Shown: one piece after another, positions 13,933 to 61,420 of the stretch
How the letters are laid out: each line of letters begins with the position of its first letter
How positions within the stretch are numbered: the first letter of the stretch is position 1
Source: Candidatus Komeilibacteria bacterium
GTDB taxonomy: Bacteria; Patescibacteriota; Patescibacteriia; UBA1558; 2-01-FULL-52-15
Assembly: GCA_043801745.1 (NCBI GenBank)
Contig: JAZDLR010000016.1
Location: 70,331 to 134,330, forward strand
Reading direction: 5' to 3'
DNA length: 64,000 bases
Position numbers and translations under genes: made by a program
Notes under the pieces: generated by a model
The model's input: only the letters and a program-made list of their open reading frames with translations
Told to the model about the DNA's origin: nothing
Databases searched by the model: none

Positions 13933-13983
13933 GCGAGAGTAGTTTCGGCCAAAGGCCGATCCGCCTGTGGCGGACAGTGGTAG
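13933..13983 (+). pseudogene. tRNA-Gly 5' fragment (GCGAGAGTAGTT...CAGTGGTAG) interrupted by a 30-nt twin-hairpin insert
   Basis: Matches positions 1-12 and 14-22 of the intact tRNA-Gly 90 nt downstream. The twin-hairpin element is inserted in the D-loop. Confidence 0.5.
13943..13973 (+). repeat. twin-hairpin GC-rich repeat, copy A (TTTCGGCCAAAGGCCGATCCGCCTGTGGCGG)
   Basis: Two consecutive short palindromes. Related copies occur at 51697-51727 and 61389-61420. Confidence 0.6.
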
Positions 13984-14022: not shown

Positions 14023-14097
<75 letters not shown>

Positions 14098-14350: not shown

Positions 14351-14824
14351 ATGCGCCAACGGACCTGGACCATCAATCAATTAAAAAAAGCTGTTAAAGT
14401 ATCTTTTAGTTATAGACAGGTTTTGAATAGGTTGGGGTTGCGTGAGGCTGGCGGCAACTATGACCAGTTGAAAAAATATATTGAAGAGTATAAGCTATCA
14501 ACGAAGCATTTTAAGGGCCGTGGGTGGAATAGAGGAATGCGGGGAATTGGTATAGTAAGGATCCCATTAAAAAAGATTTTAGTAAAAAATAGCACCTTTC
14601 AGAGTTATAAATTAAAAAAACGTTTATTTGCCGTTAAACTCAAACCGCAGTACTGTGAACTGTGCCATTGGGCCGAGAAAACCAAAGATGGATATTTACC
14701 ACTAGAATTGGACCATATTAATGGTGATCGTCATGATAATCGCTTGAAAAATTTAAGAATACTTTGCCCCAACTGTCATAGTCTACAACCAACACATCGA
14801 AGTAGAAAGAGACAACGAAGATAA
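14351..14824 (+). CDS. HNH endonuclease (homing-endonuclease-like)
   Basis: CELCHWAEK...LELDHINGDRHDNRLKNLRILCPNCHS is an HNH/His-Me finger with a zinc-binding Cys pair. The stop codon abuts the first base of tRNA-Leu(TAA). Confidence 0.8.
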   Translation: MRQRTWTINQLKKAVKVSFSYRQVLNRLGLREAGGNYDQLKKYIEEYKLSTKHFKGRGWNRGMRGIGIVRIPLKKILVKNSTFQSYKLKKRLFAVKLKPQYCELCHWAEKTKDGYLPLELDHINGDRHDNRLKNLRILCPNCHSLQPTHRSRKRQRR

Positions 14825-14909
14825 GCCGAGGTGGCGAAATTGGTATACGCACAGCACTTAAAATGCTGCGGAGCAATCCTTGCGGGTTCGAGTCCCGCCC
14901 TCGGCACCA
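14825..14909 (+). tRNA. tRNA-Leu (TAA)
   Basis: Anticodon loop CTTAAAA. Long variable arm. T-arm GCGGGTTCGAGTCCCGC. Encoded CCA. Confidence 0.9.
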
Positions 14910-29861: not shown

Positions 29862-30052
29862 AATAAAATCTATTAATTTATTAAATCTGCGTCAATTGTA
29901 ACAGGTTGGTGTTGGAGCAGCAATATAGATAATTGACTTCTGTCGCAAAATACATTATAAAATAGTGGCTATTCATTGAAATCGGCCAGAGTTCCTCCGT
30001 CTGCCAACTGGCGGAGCGGGCAGGGGCGAAATTGACTTCGTACTTAGTTTGA

Positions 30053-30137
30053 GGGCGAATGGTGAAATTGGTATACACGCTAGCTTTAGGAGCTAGTGGC
30101 GCAAGCCGTGAGAGTTCGAGTCTCTCTTCGCCCACCA
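30053..30137 (+). tRNA. tRNA-Leu (TAG)
   Basis: Acceptor GGGCGAA/TTCGCCC. Anticodon loop TTTAGGA. Long variable arm. T-arm GAGAGTTCGAGTCTCTC. Encoded CCA. Confidence 0.85.
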
Positions 30138-30198
30138 TGTCTGTGCAGGACAGGAGAATTCGTCTTCCTAAGCAAGCTCTTTTGCACAATATTAGTTT

Positions 30199-30222
30199 GG
30201 GTTCGTAGCTCAGATGGTTAGA
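30199..30222 (+). pseudogene. tRNA-Val 5' half (GGGTTCGTAGCTCAGATGGTTAGA, positions 1-22) followed by GC-rich trailer CCCGCCCGCCATGCTTCGC
   Basis: Identical D-arm to the intact tRNA-Val 60 nt downstream. Ends between D-stem positions 22 and 23. Confidence 0.6.
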
Positions 30223-30281
30223 CCCGCCCGCCATGCTTCGCTGCTTAAAATAATAATTAATAAAATTAACCAACTGTCCAT

Positions 30282-30358
30282 GGGAATGTAGCTCAGATGG
30301 TTAGAGCGCTACATTGACATTGTAGAGGTCACAGGTTCGATTCCTGTCATTCCCACCA
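30282..30358 (+). tRNA. tRNA-Val (GAC)
   Basis: Acceptor GGGAATG/CATTCCC. Anticodon loop TTGACAT. T-loop GGTTCGATTCC. Encoded CCA. Confidence 0.9.
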
Positions 30359-30397
30359 TTGGTAGTCTGGCCCGCACAGCATGGCGAAGCGGGCGGG

Positions 30398-30452
30398 GCG
30401 CTACATTGACATTGTAGAGGTCATTCCGCCGCTGGCGGGACATCGCCCACCA
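30398..30452 (+). pseudogene. tRNA-Val 3' fragment (GCGCTACATTGACATTGTAGAGGTCA...CCCACCA) preceded by leader GCACAGCATGGCGAAGCGGGCGGG complementary to the trailer at 30223-30241
   Basis: Anticodon arm identical to tRNA-Val(GAC). T-arm degenerate. The 3' end resembles that of tRNA-Leu(TAG). Confidence 0.5.
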
Positions 30453-30521
30453 TTAGCCGATATATGTAATTTAACAACTCGACGGTATTGACATGGAAGC
30501 GGTCTATAGTACAATAGTCTT

Positions 30522-31214
30522 ATGAGACCTTATTCATACAACTCTTTGAAGGCGCCAGTTATGGCTTTACGACGAAGAGGGAAAACGTACGCCGAGATTT
30601 GTGCGCATTTACAGGTTCCGATTGCAAAAAGCACCATCTCCTATTGGTGTAAGGATGTGAAGCTCACCAAACAATCGAAGCAACAACTAAAGCATCGTGT
30701 AGAAACGCATCTAGCTAAGCAAAGGGTTTTGGCGTTAAAAGCTAATATTGCCAGGAGGAATAGGTATTTAAAAGAAGTTGATAAACGGGTTTCACATTTG
30801 GGTTCTCACCTAAAAAACAGAAGCGTGGGAAAAATAGTTTTGTCCATACTTTATTGGTGCGAAGGGAAGGGTTCGCAAAGCAGTTCCTTAACATTTGGTA
30901 ACTCAAACCCAGAAATTATTAAGCTATTCTTATCAGTTCTTAGAAAGAATTACGACATAGATGAAGCAAAGTTTCGTTGCACACTACAAGGAAGAGCTGA
31001 CCAAGGAATTAGGGAATTGGAAAAATATTGGTCAACGGTCACTGAAATACCATTGTCACAATTCTATAAGGCACGAATTGATCCGCGGTCAGCAGGCAAA
31101 ACTTCAAGAAAGAAAAACTATAAAGGCGTTTGTAGGATAGATTACTTTTCTGCAGATATCTTTCATGAATTAAAAGCAATACAAAAAAGTTTAATTAAAA
31201 ATATGGGCCTGTAG
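30522..31214 (+). CDS. LAGLIDADG-like homing endonuclease with N-terminal HTH
   Basis: KIVLSILYWCEGKGSQ followed by TFGNSNPEIIKLFLSVLRKNY resembles a degenerate LAGLIDADG block and its following helix. Basic HTH-like N-terminus. The 3' end overlaps tRNA-Ala by 10 nt. Confidence 0.5.
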   Translation: MRPYSYNSLKAPVMALRRRGKTYAEICAHLQVPIAKSTISYWCKDVKLTKQSKQQLKHRVETHLAKQRVLALKANIARRNRYLKEVDKRVSHLGSHLKNRSVGKIVLSILYWCEGKGSQSSSLTFGNSNPEIIKLFLSVLRKNYDIDEAKFRCTLQGRADQGIRELEKYWSTVTEIPLSQFYKARIDPRSAGKTSRKKNYKGVCRIDYFSADIFHELKAIQKSLIKNMGL

Positions 31215-34595: not shown

Positions 34596-37815
<3,220 letters not shown>

Positions 37816-38202
37816 CTAAAGCTTTGCAAGCTTTATGTCCCCCATAGTTTTATACGAAGGGGGAAGATTGATTCACCATCTTTACCGATTGGGTATAGTC
37901 CGCTATACTAGTTCGGTAATTAGCATATTATATATAGAGAGTTATTGCTCATGAATATTCACAATCGAAACACTGGAGTTATTACCCTAGTTGTTGTATG
38001 TATTGGCCTGGTTGTTTTAGTGGGGGCAGTATTATTACTGACCCCGATTGATCCCAGCCTGCTGCATTAAATAATTATTTAAAGGGTGACCCCGCTATCG
38101 GCCGTAGGCCGAGCGGGGCAAGCAGTGTCCCCGCCTTCGCTCCTCGTTATACTCGGAGCTACGGCGGGCAAGTAGGTACTTTTTAAAAAATCGAGCATAG
38201 TG

Positions 38203-38322
38203 TTTCCGGTACTCTTCGCGGAGAGGCAACACCTGATCCCATCCCGAACTCAGCAGTTAAGCTCTCCAGCGCCGATGGTAGTTCCCTGCAACGCGGGGCG
38301 CAAGAGTAGGTCAGTGCCGGAT
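38203..38322 (+). rRNA. rrf: 5S ribosomal RNA
   Basis: CCTGATCCCATCCCGAACTCAGCAGTTAAGC...GCCGATGGTAGT...GAGTAGGTCAGTGCC conserved 5S blocks. Confidence 0.8.
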
Positions 38323-38443
38323 ACAGTGCGCTCGATTTTTTGTTAGAAAAGTATTTGCGCCGACCTGCCCACCGGAGTCCCGAGCTTGCCGAGGGACGAA
38401 GGAGGGTGGCTGAGTCCCCCGTAGCTTTAGCGAAGGGGGATAG

Positions 38444-38490
38444 TTCCCTGCAACGCGGGGCGCAAGAGTAGGTCAGTGCCTGGACATTGT
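38444..38490 (+). repeat. duplicated 3' fragment of 5S rRNA (GATAGTTCCCTGCAACGCGGGGCGCAAGAGTAGGTCAGTGCC)
   Basis: Near-identical to 5S positions ~38275-38318. Followed by a duplicated GGACATTGT[T/C]ACTCTTTTTT terminator-like unit (again at ~38578-38605). Confidence 0.7.
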
Positions 38491-38731
38491 TACTCTTTTT
38501 TAGTTTGTTTTAAGTCAGAAAGCTAGCCACCGCCAGCGGAACCATAATCAGCCACTGCTCGCCCTGCCTCTGGCGGGGGGACATTGTCACTCTTTTTTGT
38601 TTTGCTCTAATGCGCAAAACAACCCTGAGCGAGACTAGATTAGTGGATTTTTAATGTAGTATTTTAGCTAGTATTAGTCATTTTATTATGGTTTAGACGA
38701 ACATGTATAGAACAGGGAGTATACGTCCTTC

Positions 38732-46743: not shown

Positions 46744-46940
46744 TGTAATATAGGACGAATTAATCTCTTAGAACTTACAGCTGCTAATGTACCTATTTTA
46801 GGGTTGTTTTGGCAAGTAAATAAAAAAAGGCCCGAGTGAGCCAAATGATACTTTGGTGGACCCTGCCGGGCTCTCCGCCATCAGGCGGACCCGCCAACAT
46901 TAGATGCAATTATTCGTGGCGGGGAACCGGGAAGGCCATA

Positions 46941-47016
46941 TTTTTTTAAATGGTGGACCGTGCCAGATTCGAACTGGCGACCCCTACATTGCAAATGTAG
47001 TGCTCTACCAACTGAG
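46941..47016 (-). tRNA. tRNA-Ala (TGC)
   Basis: Acceptor GGGCCGT with G3:U70. Anticodon loop TTTGCAA. T-loop AGTTCGAATCT. Encoded CCA. Confidence 0.85.
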
Positions 47017-47031
47017 CTAACGGCCCCCAGC

Positions 47032-47313: not shown

Positions 47314-47559
47314 TTAGTTTATCAACCTTTTGTTTCTAAAAGCAATCCCAGAGGACGTTTTTAAATATTTTTCGAACTCTAAGGCCTTCTTCTTGTCTTC
47401 GAAAGCGCAATAGTAAACCATCTTCCACGGCTTGAATTTATTGGTATGTACAGACCTTCCTTCATTGTGGTCCTTAAGTCTCGTATCAATATTTTCTGAA
47501 AAGCCAGCGTATATTCGTTTGGGGAAGTTGATACTTCGTATTATATAGACGTAATACAT
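47314..47559 (-). CDS. GIY-YIG nuclease-domain protein
   Basis: YYVYIIRS...RIYAGFSENIDTRLKDHN...KFKPW matches the GIY-YIG core (GIY, YIG, R, H/N). Start taken at MYYVYII. The nuclease domain only. Confidence 0.7.
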   Translation of the reverse strand: MYYVYIIRSINFPKRIYAGFSENIDTRLKDHNEGRSVHTNKFKPWKMVYYCAFEDKKKALEFEKYLKTSSGIAFRNKRLIN

Positions 47560-47680
47560 TAGGAATATTTTGGGCTGTGCCATTCGTAGCGCAGCCGCAG
47601 AAGTTTTATATAGTTATTTAAGTATAATGTCCATGCTTCGCCCACTGGGCTTCGCAGGACATTCTTCGCTGCGCGAAGAA

Positions 47681-50231: not shown

Positions 50232-51536
50232 CTAAGCGGTGGTCTCAATTTTTGCCAAAACATCTTGATAAAAATCTTTGGCAATTGATCCTTGGCCGGT
50301 TTCTACCAGTCCACCGCCTTCAGTTTTAGCATAGCAAGGCTGCGTTAAAGACATGGTTCCGTCCTCGGCCAGTTTCTTTCTTTTCTTATAGCCCAGACTG
50401 CGTGTCCAAACGTCTTTCATATCAGCTGTTCTAATATCGTCACAGTATCTGAAGAGAAAACTTTCATTACCGGGGCAGGCTTGAACCCGGCCATCCTTAC
50501 GGATAAACATGCCGCTAATGAATTGATTACAGGCATAGCCGGCATAAGGAGAAACGCCCTCTTTTTTAATATCATCCAGGGTCATGATTTTATTAGCTAT
50601 CAGCCACTGGTAAACTGCGGCATATAAATCAACCAATTGTCTTTCTTTAAAATCCGGATCAGTTACTTCGGGCATTTCTAGTCCTTTGCCGCTGACCATA
50701 GTCGGGGCTAGAATAACAGGAATGTTTCGTTTGGCTCCCCAGATATATATTTTTAACGCCTCAGCAATATTGTCGCGCATGACAGGAGCACAAATTAGAG
50801 CCAGTTTCTGCAAATTGATATCTTTATTGATGCCGGCAGCCATAATATTCTCCAGCCCGGCGTTTCTTTTTTGACTGAAATTTTCAATTTTTGATCCGAT
50901 GCGTGCGTGTTCAGTTTCGGGATCGGCTGAGGTAAAACCCACGAGTAAGCGCACGTTATTATAAGTAGTAATTTTATTACATAATTCTTTAGCAGTCAGG
51001 CCGAAGTTTTTTTGCGCTAATTCATCATCTCCTAAAATAATGCCCTTGGTAAAGATGCAGATTTTTACATTTTCCTGCTCGAAAAAGTCCAGTATCTCGA
51101 ATAGTTGCGGATTGTGCATGAGCTCTCCTGGCCCTAAGAATTTGACGCTCTCTAGTCCCAATTCCTTAGCCTTGTTCACGACATCCTTTACCTCTTCAAA
51201 GGTCATAAGCGGATTATTAGTATCGGTGCGGCATTCAAAACAATGTTTACAGCCAATATCACATTTATATTCTGTTTCAGCCCGTTCACTGATTGTATTT
51301 AGCGGGCCCTCATTAACCTTTTCTACATATTCAGCATCGCTAATGCTTAAATCCAGTGTCAGTAGTTTATAGGTACCGTCGTTAGTTTTTTCTTTCATTT
51401 TGTCAACAGAAAAAGACCAGCCAACTACCCAGGGCCGGTAACCTGGGGGAAAGGATTCCGGAAAGGCCTCGGGAATATTGGGGAAAATAGCTTTTTTCTC
51501 TTCTTGGTGAGATTGAGCCAATTCAATGTTGTCCAT
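50232..51536 (-). CDS. radical SAM enzyme with C-terminal Cys-rich (SPASM/twitch-like) extension
   Basis: CDIGCKHC = CX3CX2C. C-terminal cysteines in GYACNQ, VQACPG, YCDD and QPCYAK. 434 aa. Confidence 0.75.
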   Translation of the reverse strand: MDNIELAQSHQEEKKAIFPNIPEAFPESFPPGYRPWVVGWSFSVDKMKEKTNDGTYKLLTLDLSISDAEYVEKVNEGPLNTISERAETEYKCDIGCKHCFECRTDTNNPLMTFEEVKDVVNKAKELGLESVKFLGPGELMHNPQLFEILDFFEQENVKICIFTKGIILGDDELAQKNFGLTAKELCNKITTYNNVRLLVGFTSADPETEHARIGSKIENFSQKRNAGLENIMAAGINKDINLQKLALICAPVMRDNIAEALKIYIWGAKRNIPVILAPTMVSGKGLEMPEVTDPDFKERQLVDLYAAVYQWLIANKIMTLDDIKKEGVSPYAGYACNQFISGMFIRKDGRVQACPGNESFLFRYCDDIRTADMKDVWTRSLGYKKRKKLAEDGTMSLTQPCYAKTEGGGLVETGQGSIAKDFYQDVLAKIETTA

Positions 51537-51696
51537 ATGGAGAGAATTTTATCATATTTTTGAGCAAATGAATAAACGTTATCAGAAATGAACTTGATTT
51601 GGAGATTTTTTTGCTTAGTGTTAAGTAGTGTTTTTCTCTTGATAATACGTAATTCTTGTGTTATAGTCGTAGCGCGTTTATCACAAATTCGCGCCC

Positions 51697-51727
51697 TTTC
51701 GCCCATAGGGCGATCCGCCTTTGGCGG
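51697..51727 (+). repeat. twin-hairpin GC-rich repeat, copy B (TTTCGCCCATAGGGCGATCCGCCTTTGGCGG)
   Basis: See copy A at 13943-13973. Lies upstream of tRNA-Arg. Confidence 0.6.
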
Positions 51728-51782
51728 AAGCGACTTTCGCAGATGGGCCAATAGAAAATGGAGATTATTGTCATCCTATCAT

Positions 51783-51859
51783 GCGCCCTTAGCTCAGCGG
51801 ATTAGAGCGCTTGGCTTCGGACCAAGAGGTCGGGGGTTCGAGTCCCTCAGGGCGCGCCA
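51783..51859 (+). tRNA. tRNA-Arg (TCG)
   Basis: Acceptor GCGCCCT/AGGGCGC. Anticodon loop CTTCGGA. T-loop GGTTCGAGTCC. Encoded CCA. Confidence 0.85.
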
Positions 51860-51898
51860 TCAGCCAAAGGCTGGCCAAAGGCTGATAATTTATCGCAT

Positions 51899-51921
51899 GG
51901 GTCGTTAGCTCAGCTGGTAGA
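51899..51921 (+). pseudogene. tRNA-Lys 5' half (GGGTCGTTAGCTCAGCTGGTAGA, positions 1-22) followed by trailer CCTGCCCGCCGCTCGCC
   Basis: Ends at the same D-stem position (22|23) as the Val-locus half. Confidence 0.6.
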
Positions 51922-51973
51922 CCTGCCCGCCGCTCGCCAATTGTTATTTAAAAAACTTGTTTTTATTAAATAT

Positions 51974-52050
51974 GGGTCCATAGCTCAGCCTGGTAGAGCA
52001 GTTGCCTCTTAAGCAAACGGTCGTAGGTTCGAATCCTACTGGACCCACCA
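51974..52050 (+). tRNA. tRNA-Lys (CTT)
   Basis: Acceptor GGGTCCA/TGGACCC. Anticodon loop CTCTTAA. T-loop GGTTCGAATCC. Encoded CCA. Confidence 0.9.
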
Positions 52051-52095
52051 TTATCACTAGTTGTCATGCGTCTCAAGCGAGCTATGGCAGGCGGG

Positions 52096-52148
52096 GCAGT
52101 TGCCTCTTAAGCAAACGGTCGCAGGTTCGAATCCTGCACGACCCACCA
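52096..52148 (+). pseudogene. tRNA-Lys 3' half (GCAGTTGCCTCTTAAGCAAACGGTCGCAGGTTCGAATCCTGCACGACCCACCA), intact, preceded by leader GCGAGCTATGGCAGGCGGG
   Basis: Acceptor 3' strand ACGACCC pairs perfectly with GGGTCGT of the 5' half at 51899. Anticodon arm identical to tRNA-Lys(CTT). Confidence 0.6.
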
Positions 52149-52175
52149 AAAAAATCCCTCTCGGGACTTTTTTAA

Positions 52176-53132
52176 TTAGGAGCGGAAAGGGTCAATATAG
52201 GGCCGCTTCAATTGTTGCTTATTACGTTCCCATTCTTCTTGTTTTAATTCTTCTAAGACGGGCCCAATCTGTTCGCTGATAGCCTGCAATAAAATTTGAT
52301 TGTTAAGAGAAAAATGATGGCCATTATCTTTTTCCGCAATTAGCAAACAACCGGTTATTTCTAGTTGATGTTTGATAGGACAGAGAAGCATGTCTTGGCT
52401 GGCGTATTTGGCAGTAGAAAATTTCTTTTCCCAATTTTGGGGCGTGATAATTGCCGGTTTACCGGTATTGTAAACTAAACTCATAACAGTATCACTCATT
52501 AGGCTGCTAAATTCAGGAGTCAGGGAATTGCGGTAGCCTAAAGTTTTTTCAATTCGGATACGTTTCGTCAACGGTTCGAAAGAAGCCAGTAAAACTTTTT
52601 TAACACGGAAGAGTTTTTTTAGATCAGCCAGCAGAGCCTCAATCAGGGCTGGACGGTTATGATAACTGGAAGCCAGCTTACTGAGAGCGAAAAGCGTTAG
52701 AAGTTTATGATTGGTCCGGCTTAAGCGCTCATTGAGCATGCGAATGAAATAGAGCTGGGCTGCTTGAGCAGCCGCTGGGTGATCTTGAAAGACCTTAAGC
52801 AGTTGATAAAGTGACAATTCTATAACAGTAGTATTGGGGTAGAGCGCCCGGGCAGTGTGAGTATGATTAGTACCGGGAGCATAAATGCTGGTCTCACCGA
52901 CGACATCATAGGGCTGGAAAACTGCCAGCGGCTCTGCCTGGCCTAAAATATTTTGTTCGATCAGAACTGCCCCGGTATTAACCAGATAGACTTTATCCCG
53001 TTTGGACCCCTCCCGGAACAATATCTCGTTTTCATTAAGGGTCAGTGTTTTGACAAAACTAGCCAGCTGTTTACTGGCAGTTTTACTAAAAGACCGGAAA
53101 AAGGGAATTTTTTGTAGCTCCGATACGAGCAT
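52176..53132 (-). CDS. cNMP-binding domain plus GAF-like domain regulatory protein
   Basis: N-terminal FREGSKRDKVYLVNTGAV...GETSIY (CAP/cNMP-binding fold pattern). C-terminal ~150 aa GAF-like. Stop 3 nt after pilT (coupled). Confidence 0.55.
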   Translation of the reverse strand: MLVSELQKIPFFRSFSKTASKQLASFVKTLTLNENEILFREGSKRDKVYLVNTGAVLIEQNILGQAEPLAVFQPYDVVGETSIYAPGTNHTHTARALYPNTTVIELSLYQLLKVFQDHPAAAQAAQLYFIRMLNERLSRTNHKLLTLFALSKLASSYHNRPALIEALLADLKKLFRVKKVLLASFEPLTKRIRIEKTLGYRNSLTPEFSSLMSDTVMSLVYNTGKPAIITPQNWEKKFSTAKYASQDMLLCPIKHQLEITGCLLIAEKDNGHHFSLNNQILLQAISEQIGPVLEELKQEEWERNKQQLKRPYIDPFRS

Positions 53133-61388: not shown

Positions 61389-61420
61389 TTTCGCCCATAG
61401 GGCGACCGCCCTGTGGGCGG
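61389..61420 (+). repeat. twin-hairpin GC-rich repeat, copy C (TTTCGCCCATAGGGCGACCGCCCTGTGGGCGG + TTTT)
   Basis: Second stem changed from CCGCC/GGCGG to CGCCC/GGGCG (compensatory). Lies in the nrdJ/cca divergent region. Confidence 0.6.

Follow-up and report, generated by a model that had tools for sequence, protein, structure and literature searches.

A tRNA-Lys gene nested within another tRNA-Lys gene in a Komeilibacteria contig: a probable replacement cassette from a family found in metagenomes

The 64,000-nucleotide stretch analysed here (the window), from contig JAZDLR010000016.1 of a Candidatus Komeilibacteria bacterium, contains an intact tRNA-Lys(CTT) gene lying inside a second tRNA-Lys(CTT) gene, within a 174-bp insert bounded by GC-rich complementary arms. 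This nest is probably a DNA-level replacement cassette, in which the inner tRNA would be the working gene and the two outer halves a young relic; the probability of this reading is put at roughly 0.65. It builds on the anatomy of the locus, on a family of related cassettes in metagenome contigs, and on the identity matching, decay, nesting and allele replacement observed in that family.

Anatomy of the nested tRNA-Lys locus

The nest belongs to a tRNA-Arg/tRNA-Lys unit with the following features.

51639..51667, + strand: promoter-like site TTGATA-17-TATAGT with TG, upstream of the unit (consensus match only)
51699..51728, + strand: two 15-nt GC-rich hairpins, TCGCCCataGGGCGA and TCCGCCtttGGCGGA, in the leader; the same type lies beside other stable-RNA genes of the window
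51783..51859, + strand: tRNA-Arg(TCG), first gene of the unit (ARAGORN, Rfam)
51899..51921, + strand: 5′ piece of the outer ("shell") tRNA-Lys(CTT), GGGTCGTTAGCTCAGCTGGTAGA, 23 nt, tRNA positions 1-23
51922..52095, + strand: insert (cassette) of 174 bp, comprising left arm, spacer, inner tRNA, spacer and right arm
51922..51937, + strand: left arm CCTGCCCGCC followed by GCTCGC; pairs with 52077-52095
51974..52050, + strand: intact inner tRNA-Lys(CTT) with encoded CCA, the presumed working gene (ARAGORN; Rfam tRNA, 70.2 bits)
52077..52095, + strand: right arm GCGAGC-TAT-GGCAGGCGGG
52096..52148, + strand: 3′ piece of the outer tRNA-Lys(CTT), 53 nt, positions 24-76 including CCA; 49/53 identical to the inner copy
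52155..52173, + strand: terminator-like hairpin TCCCtctcGGGA followed by a T run, directly 3′ of the outer 3′ end

An earlier, sequence-only reading of this DNA had laid out the arms, the inner tRNA-Lys(CTT) and the outer halves just as they are found here, while placing the break at 22|23; the actual break is at tRNA position 23|24, within the 3′ strand of the D-stem, and the 5′ piece is 23 nt long rather than 22. Its expectation that removing the 174 bp would rebuild a second complete tRNA-Lys(CTT) is borne out by ARAGORN, which calls the joined 76-nt sequence as tRNA-Lys(CTT) with every stem Watson-Crick paired. The outer 3′ piece (52096-52148) by itself has a sub-threshold Rfam tRNA score of 24.8 bits. 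Target-site duplication is absent, as the joined flanks rebuild the exact tRNA with zero repeated or lost bases. The arms are complementary in two blocks, CCTGCC/GGCAGG and GCTCGC/GCGAGC, and both the arms and the two acceptor stems, inner as well as outer, are paired when 51899-52148 is folded to minimum free energy. The cassette holds no open reading frame (ORF).

The inner and outer tRNA-Lys sequences are identical at 70 of 77 positions, and the differences fall in acceptor pairs 6:67 and 7:66 and one T-stem pair, all of them compensated, and at one D-loop base. Because the stem differences are fully compensated, the two copies are functional alleles that evolved separately, and neither is a fresh self-copy of the other. 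The promoter scan of 51500-52300 returned a single sigma-70-like match, at 51639-51667, and called no promoter in the left spacer of the cassette. Since this promoter-like site precedes tRNA-Arg and the terminator-like hairpin follows the outer 3′ end, the outer tRNA-Lys gene appears to be the original last gene of the Arg-Lys unit, with the cassette inside it. The terminator motif AAAAAAATCCCnnnnGGGACTTTTTT follows the outer tRNA-Lys in the window and, in the related contig L124, follows a tRNA-Ala beside the orthologous Crp gene.

A sister locus with a comparable insert lies elsewhere in the window.

30199..30452, + strand: tRNA-Val(GAC) nest (outer 5′ piece 30199-30222, insert 30223-30397, inner tRNA 30282-30358, decayed outer 3′ part 30398-30452)

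The architecture of this locus had been taken to be the same as that of Lys, which holds for the left junction and for the size of the insert (175 bp against 174 bp, likewise ORF-less) but not for the outer 3′ part. This part is non-canonical, with the hairpin TTCCGCCgctGGCGGGA in place of the T arm and a 3′ end that mismatches the 5′ acceptor strand, and no tRNA is recognised in the joined outer pieces. The second helix of the arms is GCTTCGC/GCGAAGC at Val versus GCTCGC/GCGAGC at Lys. Searches of the inserts at both loci (51650-52250 and 29950-30550) returned no Rfam intron, ribozyme or other family at the gathering threshold and at E <= 5.

A family of cassettes in metagenomes

Metagenome contigs were scanned with the pattern TAGCTCAG-N4-8-AGA|CCYGCCCGCC, from which the right arm was excluded. 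This search for further half-tRNAs followed by CC[CT]GCCCGCC, which the sequence-only reading had proposed for the genome, matched at least 120 metagenome stretches from more than 70 data sets. Within the 64-kb window, the exact CCYGCCCGCC occurs at two sites only, namely the Lys and Val tRNA junctions. Given this confinement and the recurrence of the junction in at least 120 stretches, the Lys and Val nests are not a product of chance. The same pattern gave two chance matches only in viral contigs, located in a GC-rich coding region, and thus provided no evidence for phage carriage.

Among the matches listed, the right arm matched GGCAGGCGGG exactly in 58 cases and was followed by GC in 80 of 96. 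The inserts fall into three size classes: 28-60 nt, consisting of a hairpin only; 101-118 nt, consisting of arms, spacers of 5-11 nt and a tRNA; and 147-199 nt, the class containing both window inserts. The arms are conserved over about 90 inserts, with both arms at the same position, a base-precise junction and different tRNA cargos between them. The compensatory arm change noted between Lys and Val is real and proves to be general, with position 3 of the left arm and position 4 of the right arm combining as T/A in 87 cases, C/G in 6, T/G in 3 and C/A in none; this covariation supports the CCTGCC:GGCAGG pairing, with the reservation that relatedness of the copies could inflate the count. The compact cassettes keep a 3x3 internal loop at the ends of the inner tRNA. 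The D-arm motif precedes 123 of the arm copies in the fetched loci, an enrichment imposed by the search pattern; a second hot spot of insertion besides 23|24 is found in the anticodon loop, with breaks at approximately 32-36.

A perfect 20-nt palindrome related to the arms, CCTGCCTGCCGGCAGGCAGG, was also observed at intergenic sites away from tRNA genes (L004, L017, L031, L038, L045 and L069) and within the T stems of tRNA relics (L044 and L052).

Cargo identity, decay and nesting

The anticodon of the inner tRNA equals that of the outer tRNA in all 28 nests with a readable outer anticodon, and the cargo identities number at least ten (Thr, Val, Arg, Ala, Lys, Ile, Met, Phe, His and Asp). Across nests, the inner tRNA is 64-96% identical to its own outer copy, with stem changes compensated. 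The outer copies are in various states of preservation: about 30 of 123 still join into a tRNA, several of these with junction defects, and the remainder contain GC hairpins in the anticodon loop, have a T arm replaced by a hairpin, or are truncated. Gene finders for tRNA skip the outer copies or mis-call them as odd tRNAs of 90-95 nt.

The hairpin-only inserts, 24 distinct ones, all occupy outer copies with a further break in the anticodon loop (~32-36), and wherever the contig continues (20 of 20) an intact tRNA for the same amino acid follows. The anticodon is also the same in these cases, with the exception of L007, in which a Val TAC shell accompanies a Val CAC inner tRNA. In L111, the outer and inner tRNA-Lys(TTT) sequences are identical and the hairpin is present in the outer copy only. 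Two- and three-deep nests occur in L052, L068, L050 and L082, and the order of the arms can be swapped at the anticodon-loop site. With most cassette spacers only 5-11 nt long, a promoter would not fit in them, and the transcript from which the inner tRNA is cut must therefore start in the outer gene. Taken together, the matched cargo, the decay, the hairpin-only pattern, the nesting and the short spacers indicate an insertion that behaves as inactivating and a cargo that behaves as rescue.

Self-duplication of the outer gene was considered as a general origin of the nests and was rejected in view of the compensated stem changes between inner and outer copies; L111 and L063 hold near-identical pairs.

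Movement of cassettes and replacement of alleles

Two orthologous loci, L014 and L032, have an ftsE flank that is approximately 85% identical and contain cassettes with 4 differences over 108 positions. The outer tRNA-Thr(CGT) genes, by contrast, show 18-20 differences, with all four variable acceptor pairs compensated, and these differences start 3 nt from the junction. Such unequal divergence would not be expected of two tRNA-Thr genes under equal constraints; the cassette therefore entered at least one of the two lineages recently, without co-conversion of the flank.

A replaced allele can also be recognised within the window. The tRNA-Ala(TGC) gene at 46951-47026 (- strand) is followed downstream, at 46852-46889, by a hairpin, TCCGCCtgatGGCGGA, and then by a relic of a tRNA-Ala 3′ end. 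This relic (46852-46873) is identical at 22 of 22 positions to the 3′ end of the intact tRNA-Ala(TGC) in the relative L124, the Crp protein of which is 82% identical to that of the window, and the working tRNA-Ala of the window is only about 79% identical to the L124 gene. Since the relic equals the end of the L124 gene while the working gene differs, the window tRNA-Ala is a replacement allele beside which the end of the old allele survives.

The same comparison also reveals an inversion: relative to PilT-Crp, the segment spanning L19 through tRNA-Ala has the opposite orientation, and the break falls exactly at a tRNA 3′ end (...CCACCA with the terminator common to both; window 52149-52175 and 46852-46873, L124 1540-1570).

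Nucleases adjacent to tRNA genes

Clustering of ORFs around the fetched loci identified, as the dominant family, proteins of about 80 amino acids consisting of a GIY-YIG domain only (Pfam PF01541). Of approximately 23 such ORFs, 15 end between -38 and +30 nt from the 5′ end of a tRNA gene on the same strand, and many of them are accompanied by remnants of that tRNA: a 5′ relic reaching about position 35 that precedes the ORF, a 3′ relic located past the tRNA, or both. The nuclease ORF lies inside the insertion in the nests L111, L057, L094, L090 and L124, and only the tail of a decayed GIY-YIG ORF remains in L047. The order in L124 is tRNA-Val, GIY-YIG ORF, hairpins and an identical 3′ copy of tRNA-Val. 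A second GIY-YIG ORF of this locus directly precedes tRNA-Ala, and its counterpart is missing in the window, making it a presence/absence difference between close relatives. Two nuclease genes of the window adjoin tRNA genes.

47314-47583, - strand: GIY-YIG ORF, 89 amino acids, GIY-YIG domain only (Pfam PF01541, 65 bits), between tRNA-Val(TAC) and tRNA-Ala(TGC)
14351-14824, + strand: HNH endonuclease ORF, 157 amino acids; its stop codon abuts the 5′ end of tRNA-Leu(TAA) at 14825

The GIY-YIG ORF at 47314-47583 has GC hairpins on both sides, and its closest solved relatives are UPF0213 BH0048 (E = 1.4e-4) and SLX1. The layout of the HNH ORF and tRNA-Leu is that of the GIY-YIG-tRNA units in metagenomes; no Leu relic was found upstream of the HNH ORF at 14351-14824. 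Evidence connecting these nucleases with the armed, ORF-less cassettes is circumstantial.

Other relics, repeats and neighbouring genes in the window

Partial copies are found at further stable-RNA genes of the window. The first 12 nt of the tRNA-Gly(GCC) gene (14023-14097), GCGAGAGTAGTT, are repeated exactly approximately 90 nt upstream, and two 15-nt GC hairpins directly follow this copy (copy and hairpins together, 13933-13974); the break at about 12|13 constitutes a third break site. The 5S rRNA gene (38205-38322) is followed by a GC-rich spacer of 122 nt, beyond which 40 nt of its 3′ part are repeated exactly (38441-38480), and its terminator-like flank is likewise duplicated (38482-38625). 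As the 3′ part of the 5S rRNA is also copied, the relic phenomenon reaches beyond tRNAs. The 23S rRNA gene (34601-37819) is 3219 nt long against a model of 2925 positions, with about 300 extra nt, has no adjacent 16S gene, and includes TCCGCCtttGGCGGA-type hairpins at 35484-35498 and 36029-36045.

These hairpins belong to a family of GC-rich elements of about 15 nt with a 6-bp stem and a 3-4-nt loop, often closed by T...A and often in tandem pairs. They are found at 13945-13974, 51699-51728, 61391-61420, 38098-38112, 46874-46889 and 30426-30438, are concentrated beside stable-RNA genes, and stand in for the T arms of tRNA relics both in the window and in L024, L050 and L061.

The gene adjoining the Arg-Lys unit (50232-51536, - strand) encodes a radical SAM protein, homologues of which are 69-78% identical and occur in very different neighbourhoods, some archaeal-looking (with TrmB regulators) and some adjoining restriction enzymes. 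This suggests, from gene contexts, that the radical SAM gene may itself have been patchily transferred. Both proteins flanking the unit match Candidatus Komeilibacteria entries at NCBI with 100% identity; exact-sequence look-ups of window proteins gave no record. A homologue with 64% identity is present in a Buchananbacteria genome (Patescibacteria/Parcubacteria group) on a contig that is non-syntenic.

Proposed mechanism

The sequence of events would begin with a small single-domain GIY-YIG or HNH nuclease that cuts tRNA genes at positions set by structure; the cut would lead to homing-like repair or to hairpin-guided single-strand insertion. Such a nuclease is probably the driver of cassette movement, a proposal held with much lower confidence than the relic and cassette at the core of the reading. 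The target of a cassette of this family would be a tRNA gene, entered either at 23|24 or within the anticodon loop; since the incoming DNA supplies an intact gene for the same tRNA, the essential function would survive the disruption. At the Lys locus, the ORF-less cassette of 174 bp would have inserted precisely at D-stem position 23|24 of the old tRNA-Lys(CTT), with no bases duplicated or lost. The inner tRNA would then be transcribed from the promoter of the old gene, with the outer 5′ piece in its leader and the outer 3′ piece in its trailer. The arms and the variable second helix would close the insert into a stem, and ordinary 5′ and 3′ tRNA processing would free the inner tRNA, which may be the only copy expressed. 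The stem may serve as the substrate of single-strand DNA insertion or as a processing stalk in the precursor. The outer Lys halves, still undamaged, would be expected to decay in the same way as the Val, Gly and Ala relics of the window.

Alternative explanations

Several observations weigh against the replacement cassette. The outer tRNA-Lys is flawless and bears no sequence sign of death, and the conserved and covarying arms, the differing second helices and the 3x3 loop would also fit a role at the RNA level. The insertion sites are common in position (23|24 and the anticodon loop) and not in sequence, which is unusual for a transposase. L014 and L032 are the only clean pair with the same cassette in different outer alleles, and no empty-site orthologue of the Arg-Lys locus was found by contig scan or among the contexts of the radical SAM homologues (four contigs). 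The armed Lys cassette is ORF-less, the nests with GIY-YIG ORFs are without arms, and nuclease and cassette are linked by neighbourhood only.

If the nests functioned at the RNA level, the arm helix would be cut from the precursor, the inner tRNA would be freed and the outer pieces would be ligated or used as a two-piece tRNA, giving two tRNA-Lys per locus. The outer tRNA-Lys is perfect once exactly 174 nt are removed, the predicted fold joins its pieces via the arms, the arm pairing covaries (T/A 87, C/G 6), about 30 outer copies on other contigs are still intact tRNAs, and L015 contains two separate inserts, both of them precise. This explanation is nevertheless unlikely, as a cargo matching the interrupted gene in identity (28/28) is needed only if that gene is lost, a hairpin-only insert is never the sole copy (in the 20 with enough contig, of 24 distinct), around two thirds of the outer copies are decayed, and the L014/L032 cassette is far more conserved than its outer tRNA. 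The inserts also have no match to an Rfam intron or ribozyme. Archaeal-type splicing relies on a bulge-helix-bulge motif, in which two 3-nt bulges lie 4 bp apart, at both exon-intron junctions. A bulge-helix-bulge reading of the Lys nest was rejected: the 5′ junction runs straight, flush, into the arm helix, and only the 3′ side can leave CGGG unpaired. Pairing of the first exon-2 bases with the intron start is specific to Lys and absent in the other nests. The earlier suggestion of a bacterial intron-containing or split tRNA thus finds no support as a general explanation, with an uninterrupted copy of the same identity inside or beside every interrupted gene and about two thirds of the outer copies decayed. 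It is doubtful, at odds of around one in ten, that the arms are recognised by an undescribed bacterial tRNA excision-and-ligation (or two-piece) pathway yielding both inner and outer tRNA-Lys from one transcript, and RNA-level use of this particular, still perfect outer tRNA-Lys is equally doubtful.

The nests might also have arisen with no dedicated element, through error-prone repair or recombination at tRNA genes, either from nuclease breaks repaired with imported homologous tRNA DNA or by template switching at palindromes, the arms then being a separate hairpin-repeat family that accumulates there. Partial self-duplications of several geometries (5′ only, 3′ only and both), a rearrangement breakpoint between the window and L124 exactly at tRNA 3′ ends, and free-standing 20-nt palindromes CCTGCCTGCCGGCAGGCAGG at non-tRNA sites are consistent with this explanation. 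It accords poorly with about 90 cases in which arms of the same sequence occupy the same positions, meet the tRNA at a base-precise junction and enclose different tRNA cargos, with the tight 101-118 nt size class, and with the presence of a near-identical cassette within different outer alleles, and it is likewise judged improbable. Integrase scars (attL/attR remnants of phage or plasmid integration) had also been proposed. Integrating elements classically target tRNA genes and bring along a segment that replaces part of the tRNA, and the 3′ relics downstream of the window tRNA-Ala and 5S rRNA resemble attR-type repeats. At Lys and Val, however, one copy is nested in the other instead of lying in tandem with it, the 5′ and 3′ breaks fall together at 23|24, within the D stem and not between the anticodon or T loop and the 3′ end, the junctions are without a shared core repeat, and the whole Lys insert measures 174 bp with no integrase, recombinase or other element gene nearby. 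Such scars are therefore a poor fit, and this origin is very improbable. Of the explanations offered by the sequence-only reading, inverted-repeat elements carrying a replacement tRNA are the one favoured here, in view of the large family, the matched cargo, the decay, the nests and the occurrence of a cassette in different outer alleles.

Comparison with known systems

Mobile DNA that disrupts a gene while supplying a substitute for it is already known from homing-endonuclease genes of organelles and phages. Examples of homing-type replacement include a GIY-YIG ORF of Allomyces mitochondria, located at the 3′ end of atp6, and the free-standing SegB of phage T4 in the phage tRNA cluster. Homing-endonuclease replacement genes, along with the gene-fragment duplications of fungal mitochondria, are the most kindred cases. 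In these as in the nests, an essential gene can be invaded because the incoming DNA brings a substitute for the sequence it displaces, the displaced piece stays as a relic, and related nests hold a GIY-YIG ORF between the relic and the new tRNA. The restoration of the disrupted function by the insert is likewise seen here, the inner tRNA being intact with the same anticodon and the old Ala relic matching the gene of the relative (22/22). The nests differ in that a whole tRNA gene lies within its predecessor, bounded by conserved pairing arms, in that the Lys and Val cassettes are ORF-less, and in that the hosts are Patescibacteria chromosomes.

Miniature inverted-repeat transposable elements (MITEs), repetitive extragenic palindromes and bacterial interspersed mosaic elements (REP/BIME), and Rickettsia palindromic elements resemble the cassettes in being small, ORF-less and multicopy with GC-rich terminal inverted repeats, and the cassette family also has hairpin-only versions of 28-60 nt. 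By contrast, the Lys cassette is without target-site duplication, and cassettes insert at structure-defined positions and carry a functional tRNA of matched identity. Copies of a generic MITE, which the sequence-only reading had set against its own interpretation, would be dispersed at unrelated sites. The window copies are in tRNA genes only, with exact arms at the two tRNA junctions and nowhere else, but the related 20-nt palindromes of the metagenome loci do occur at non-tRNA sites.

Ssn proteins are single-domain GIY-YIG, site-specific single-strand DNA nucleases tied to hairpin repeats, and are reported to restrict transforming DNA rather than to move cassettes (PMC11893778). The window GIY-YIG protein is similarly small (~80-90 amino acids), single-domain and encoded among GC-rich hairpin repeats, and is only a candidate for membership in the cd10448 clade. 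The nests share with Ssn and with the hairpin-guided single-strand transposition of IS200/IS605 a base-precise insertion without duplication and a complementarity that is kept while the sequence varies; they differ in that no conserved target tetranucleotide was seen at the cassette sites.

Intron-containing and split tRNAs of archaea, including the half genes of Nanoarchaeum, also show non-canonical interruptions and GC-rich complements that join the halves (PMC4033280, PMC4390854). In the nests, the host is bacterial, the outer copies decay, and an intact copy of the same identity lies inside or beside the interrupted gene. Group I introns have been described in tRNA genes of Patescibacteria, at 35/36 of tRNA-Asn and in some cases with HNH genes (PMC13011429). 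They share with the nests the phylum, the anticodon loop, which is the second hot spot of the nests, and the association with HNH genes, and differ in that the nest insert holds a tRNA and not a ribozyme and that 23|24 is not an intron site in that survey (PMC13011429). A group I intron model found no match across 51650-52250 and 29950-30550 (gathering threshold or E <= 5).

This 2026 survey of tRNA introns in Patescibacteria makes no mention of nested tRNA genes or of the arms (PMC13011429). The sequence-only reading knew of no described bacterial system of this kind, and none was found in the full-text literature searched for nested tRNA genes or for the arms, arm sequences included, a search of incomplete coverage that amounts to absence of evidence only. 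To our knowledge, the nesting of whole tRNA genes, the conserved pairing arms, the D-stem site and the scale within a bacterial phylum are new.

Significance

Patescibacteria have reduced genomes with few tRNA genes. The outer tRNA-Lys of the window is intact and has an acceptor stem (GGGTCGT/ACGACCC) distinct from that of the inner copy (GGGTCCA/TGGACCC), which makes reassembly in a bacterium directly testable; if an RNA-level pathway were true, Patescibacteria would be the first bacteria with protein-dependent, archaeal-style interruption of tRNA genes. If the replacement cassette reading is correct, the tRNA genes of Patescibacteria would be turned over by small cassettes that destroy and replace the resident gene in one step, which would explain the half-tRNAs, the tRNA and 5S relics and the GC hairpins around the stable-RNA genes of these genomes. 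It would also give the single-domain GIY-YIG nucleases, widespread yet little understood, a defined target in tRNA genes, and would provide a concrete route by which tRNA alleles may move horizontally between lineages.

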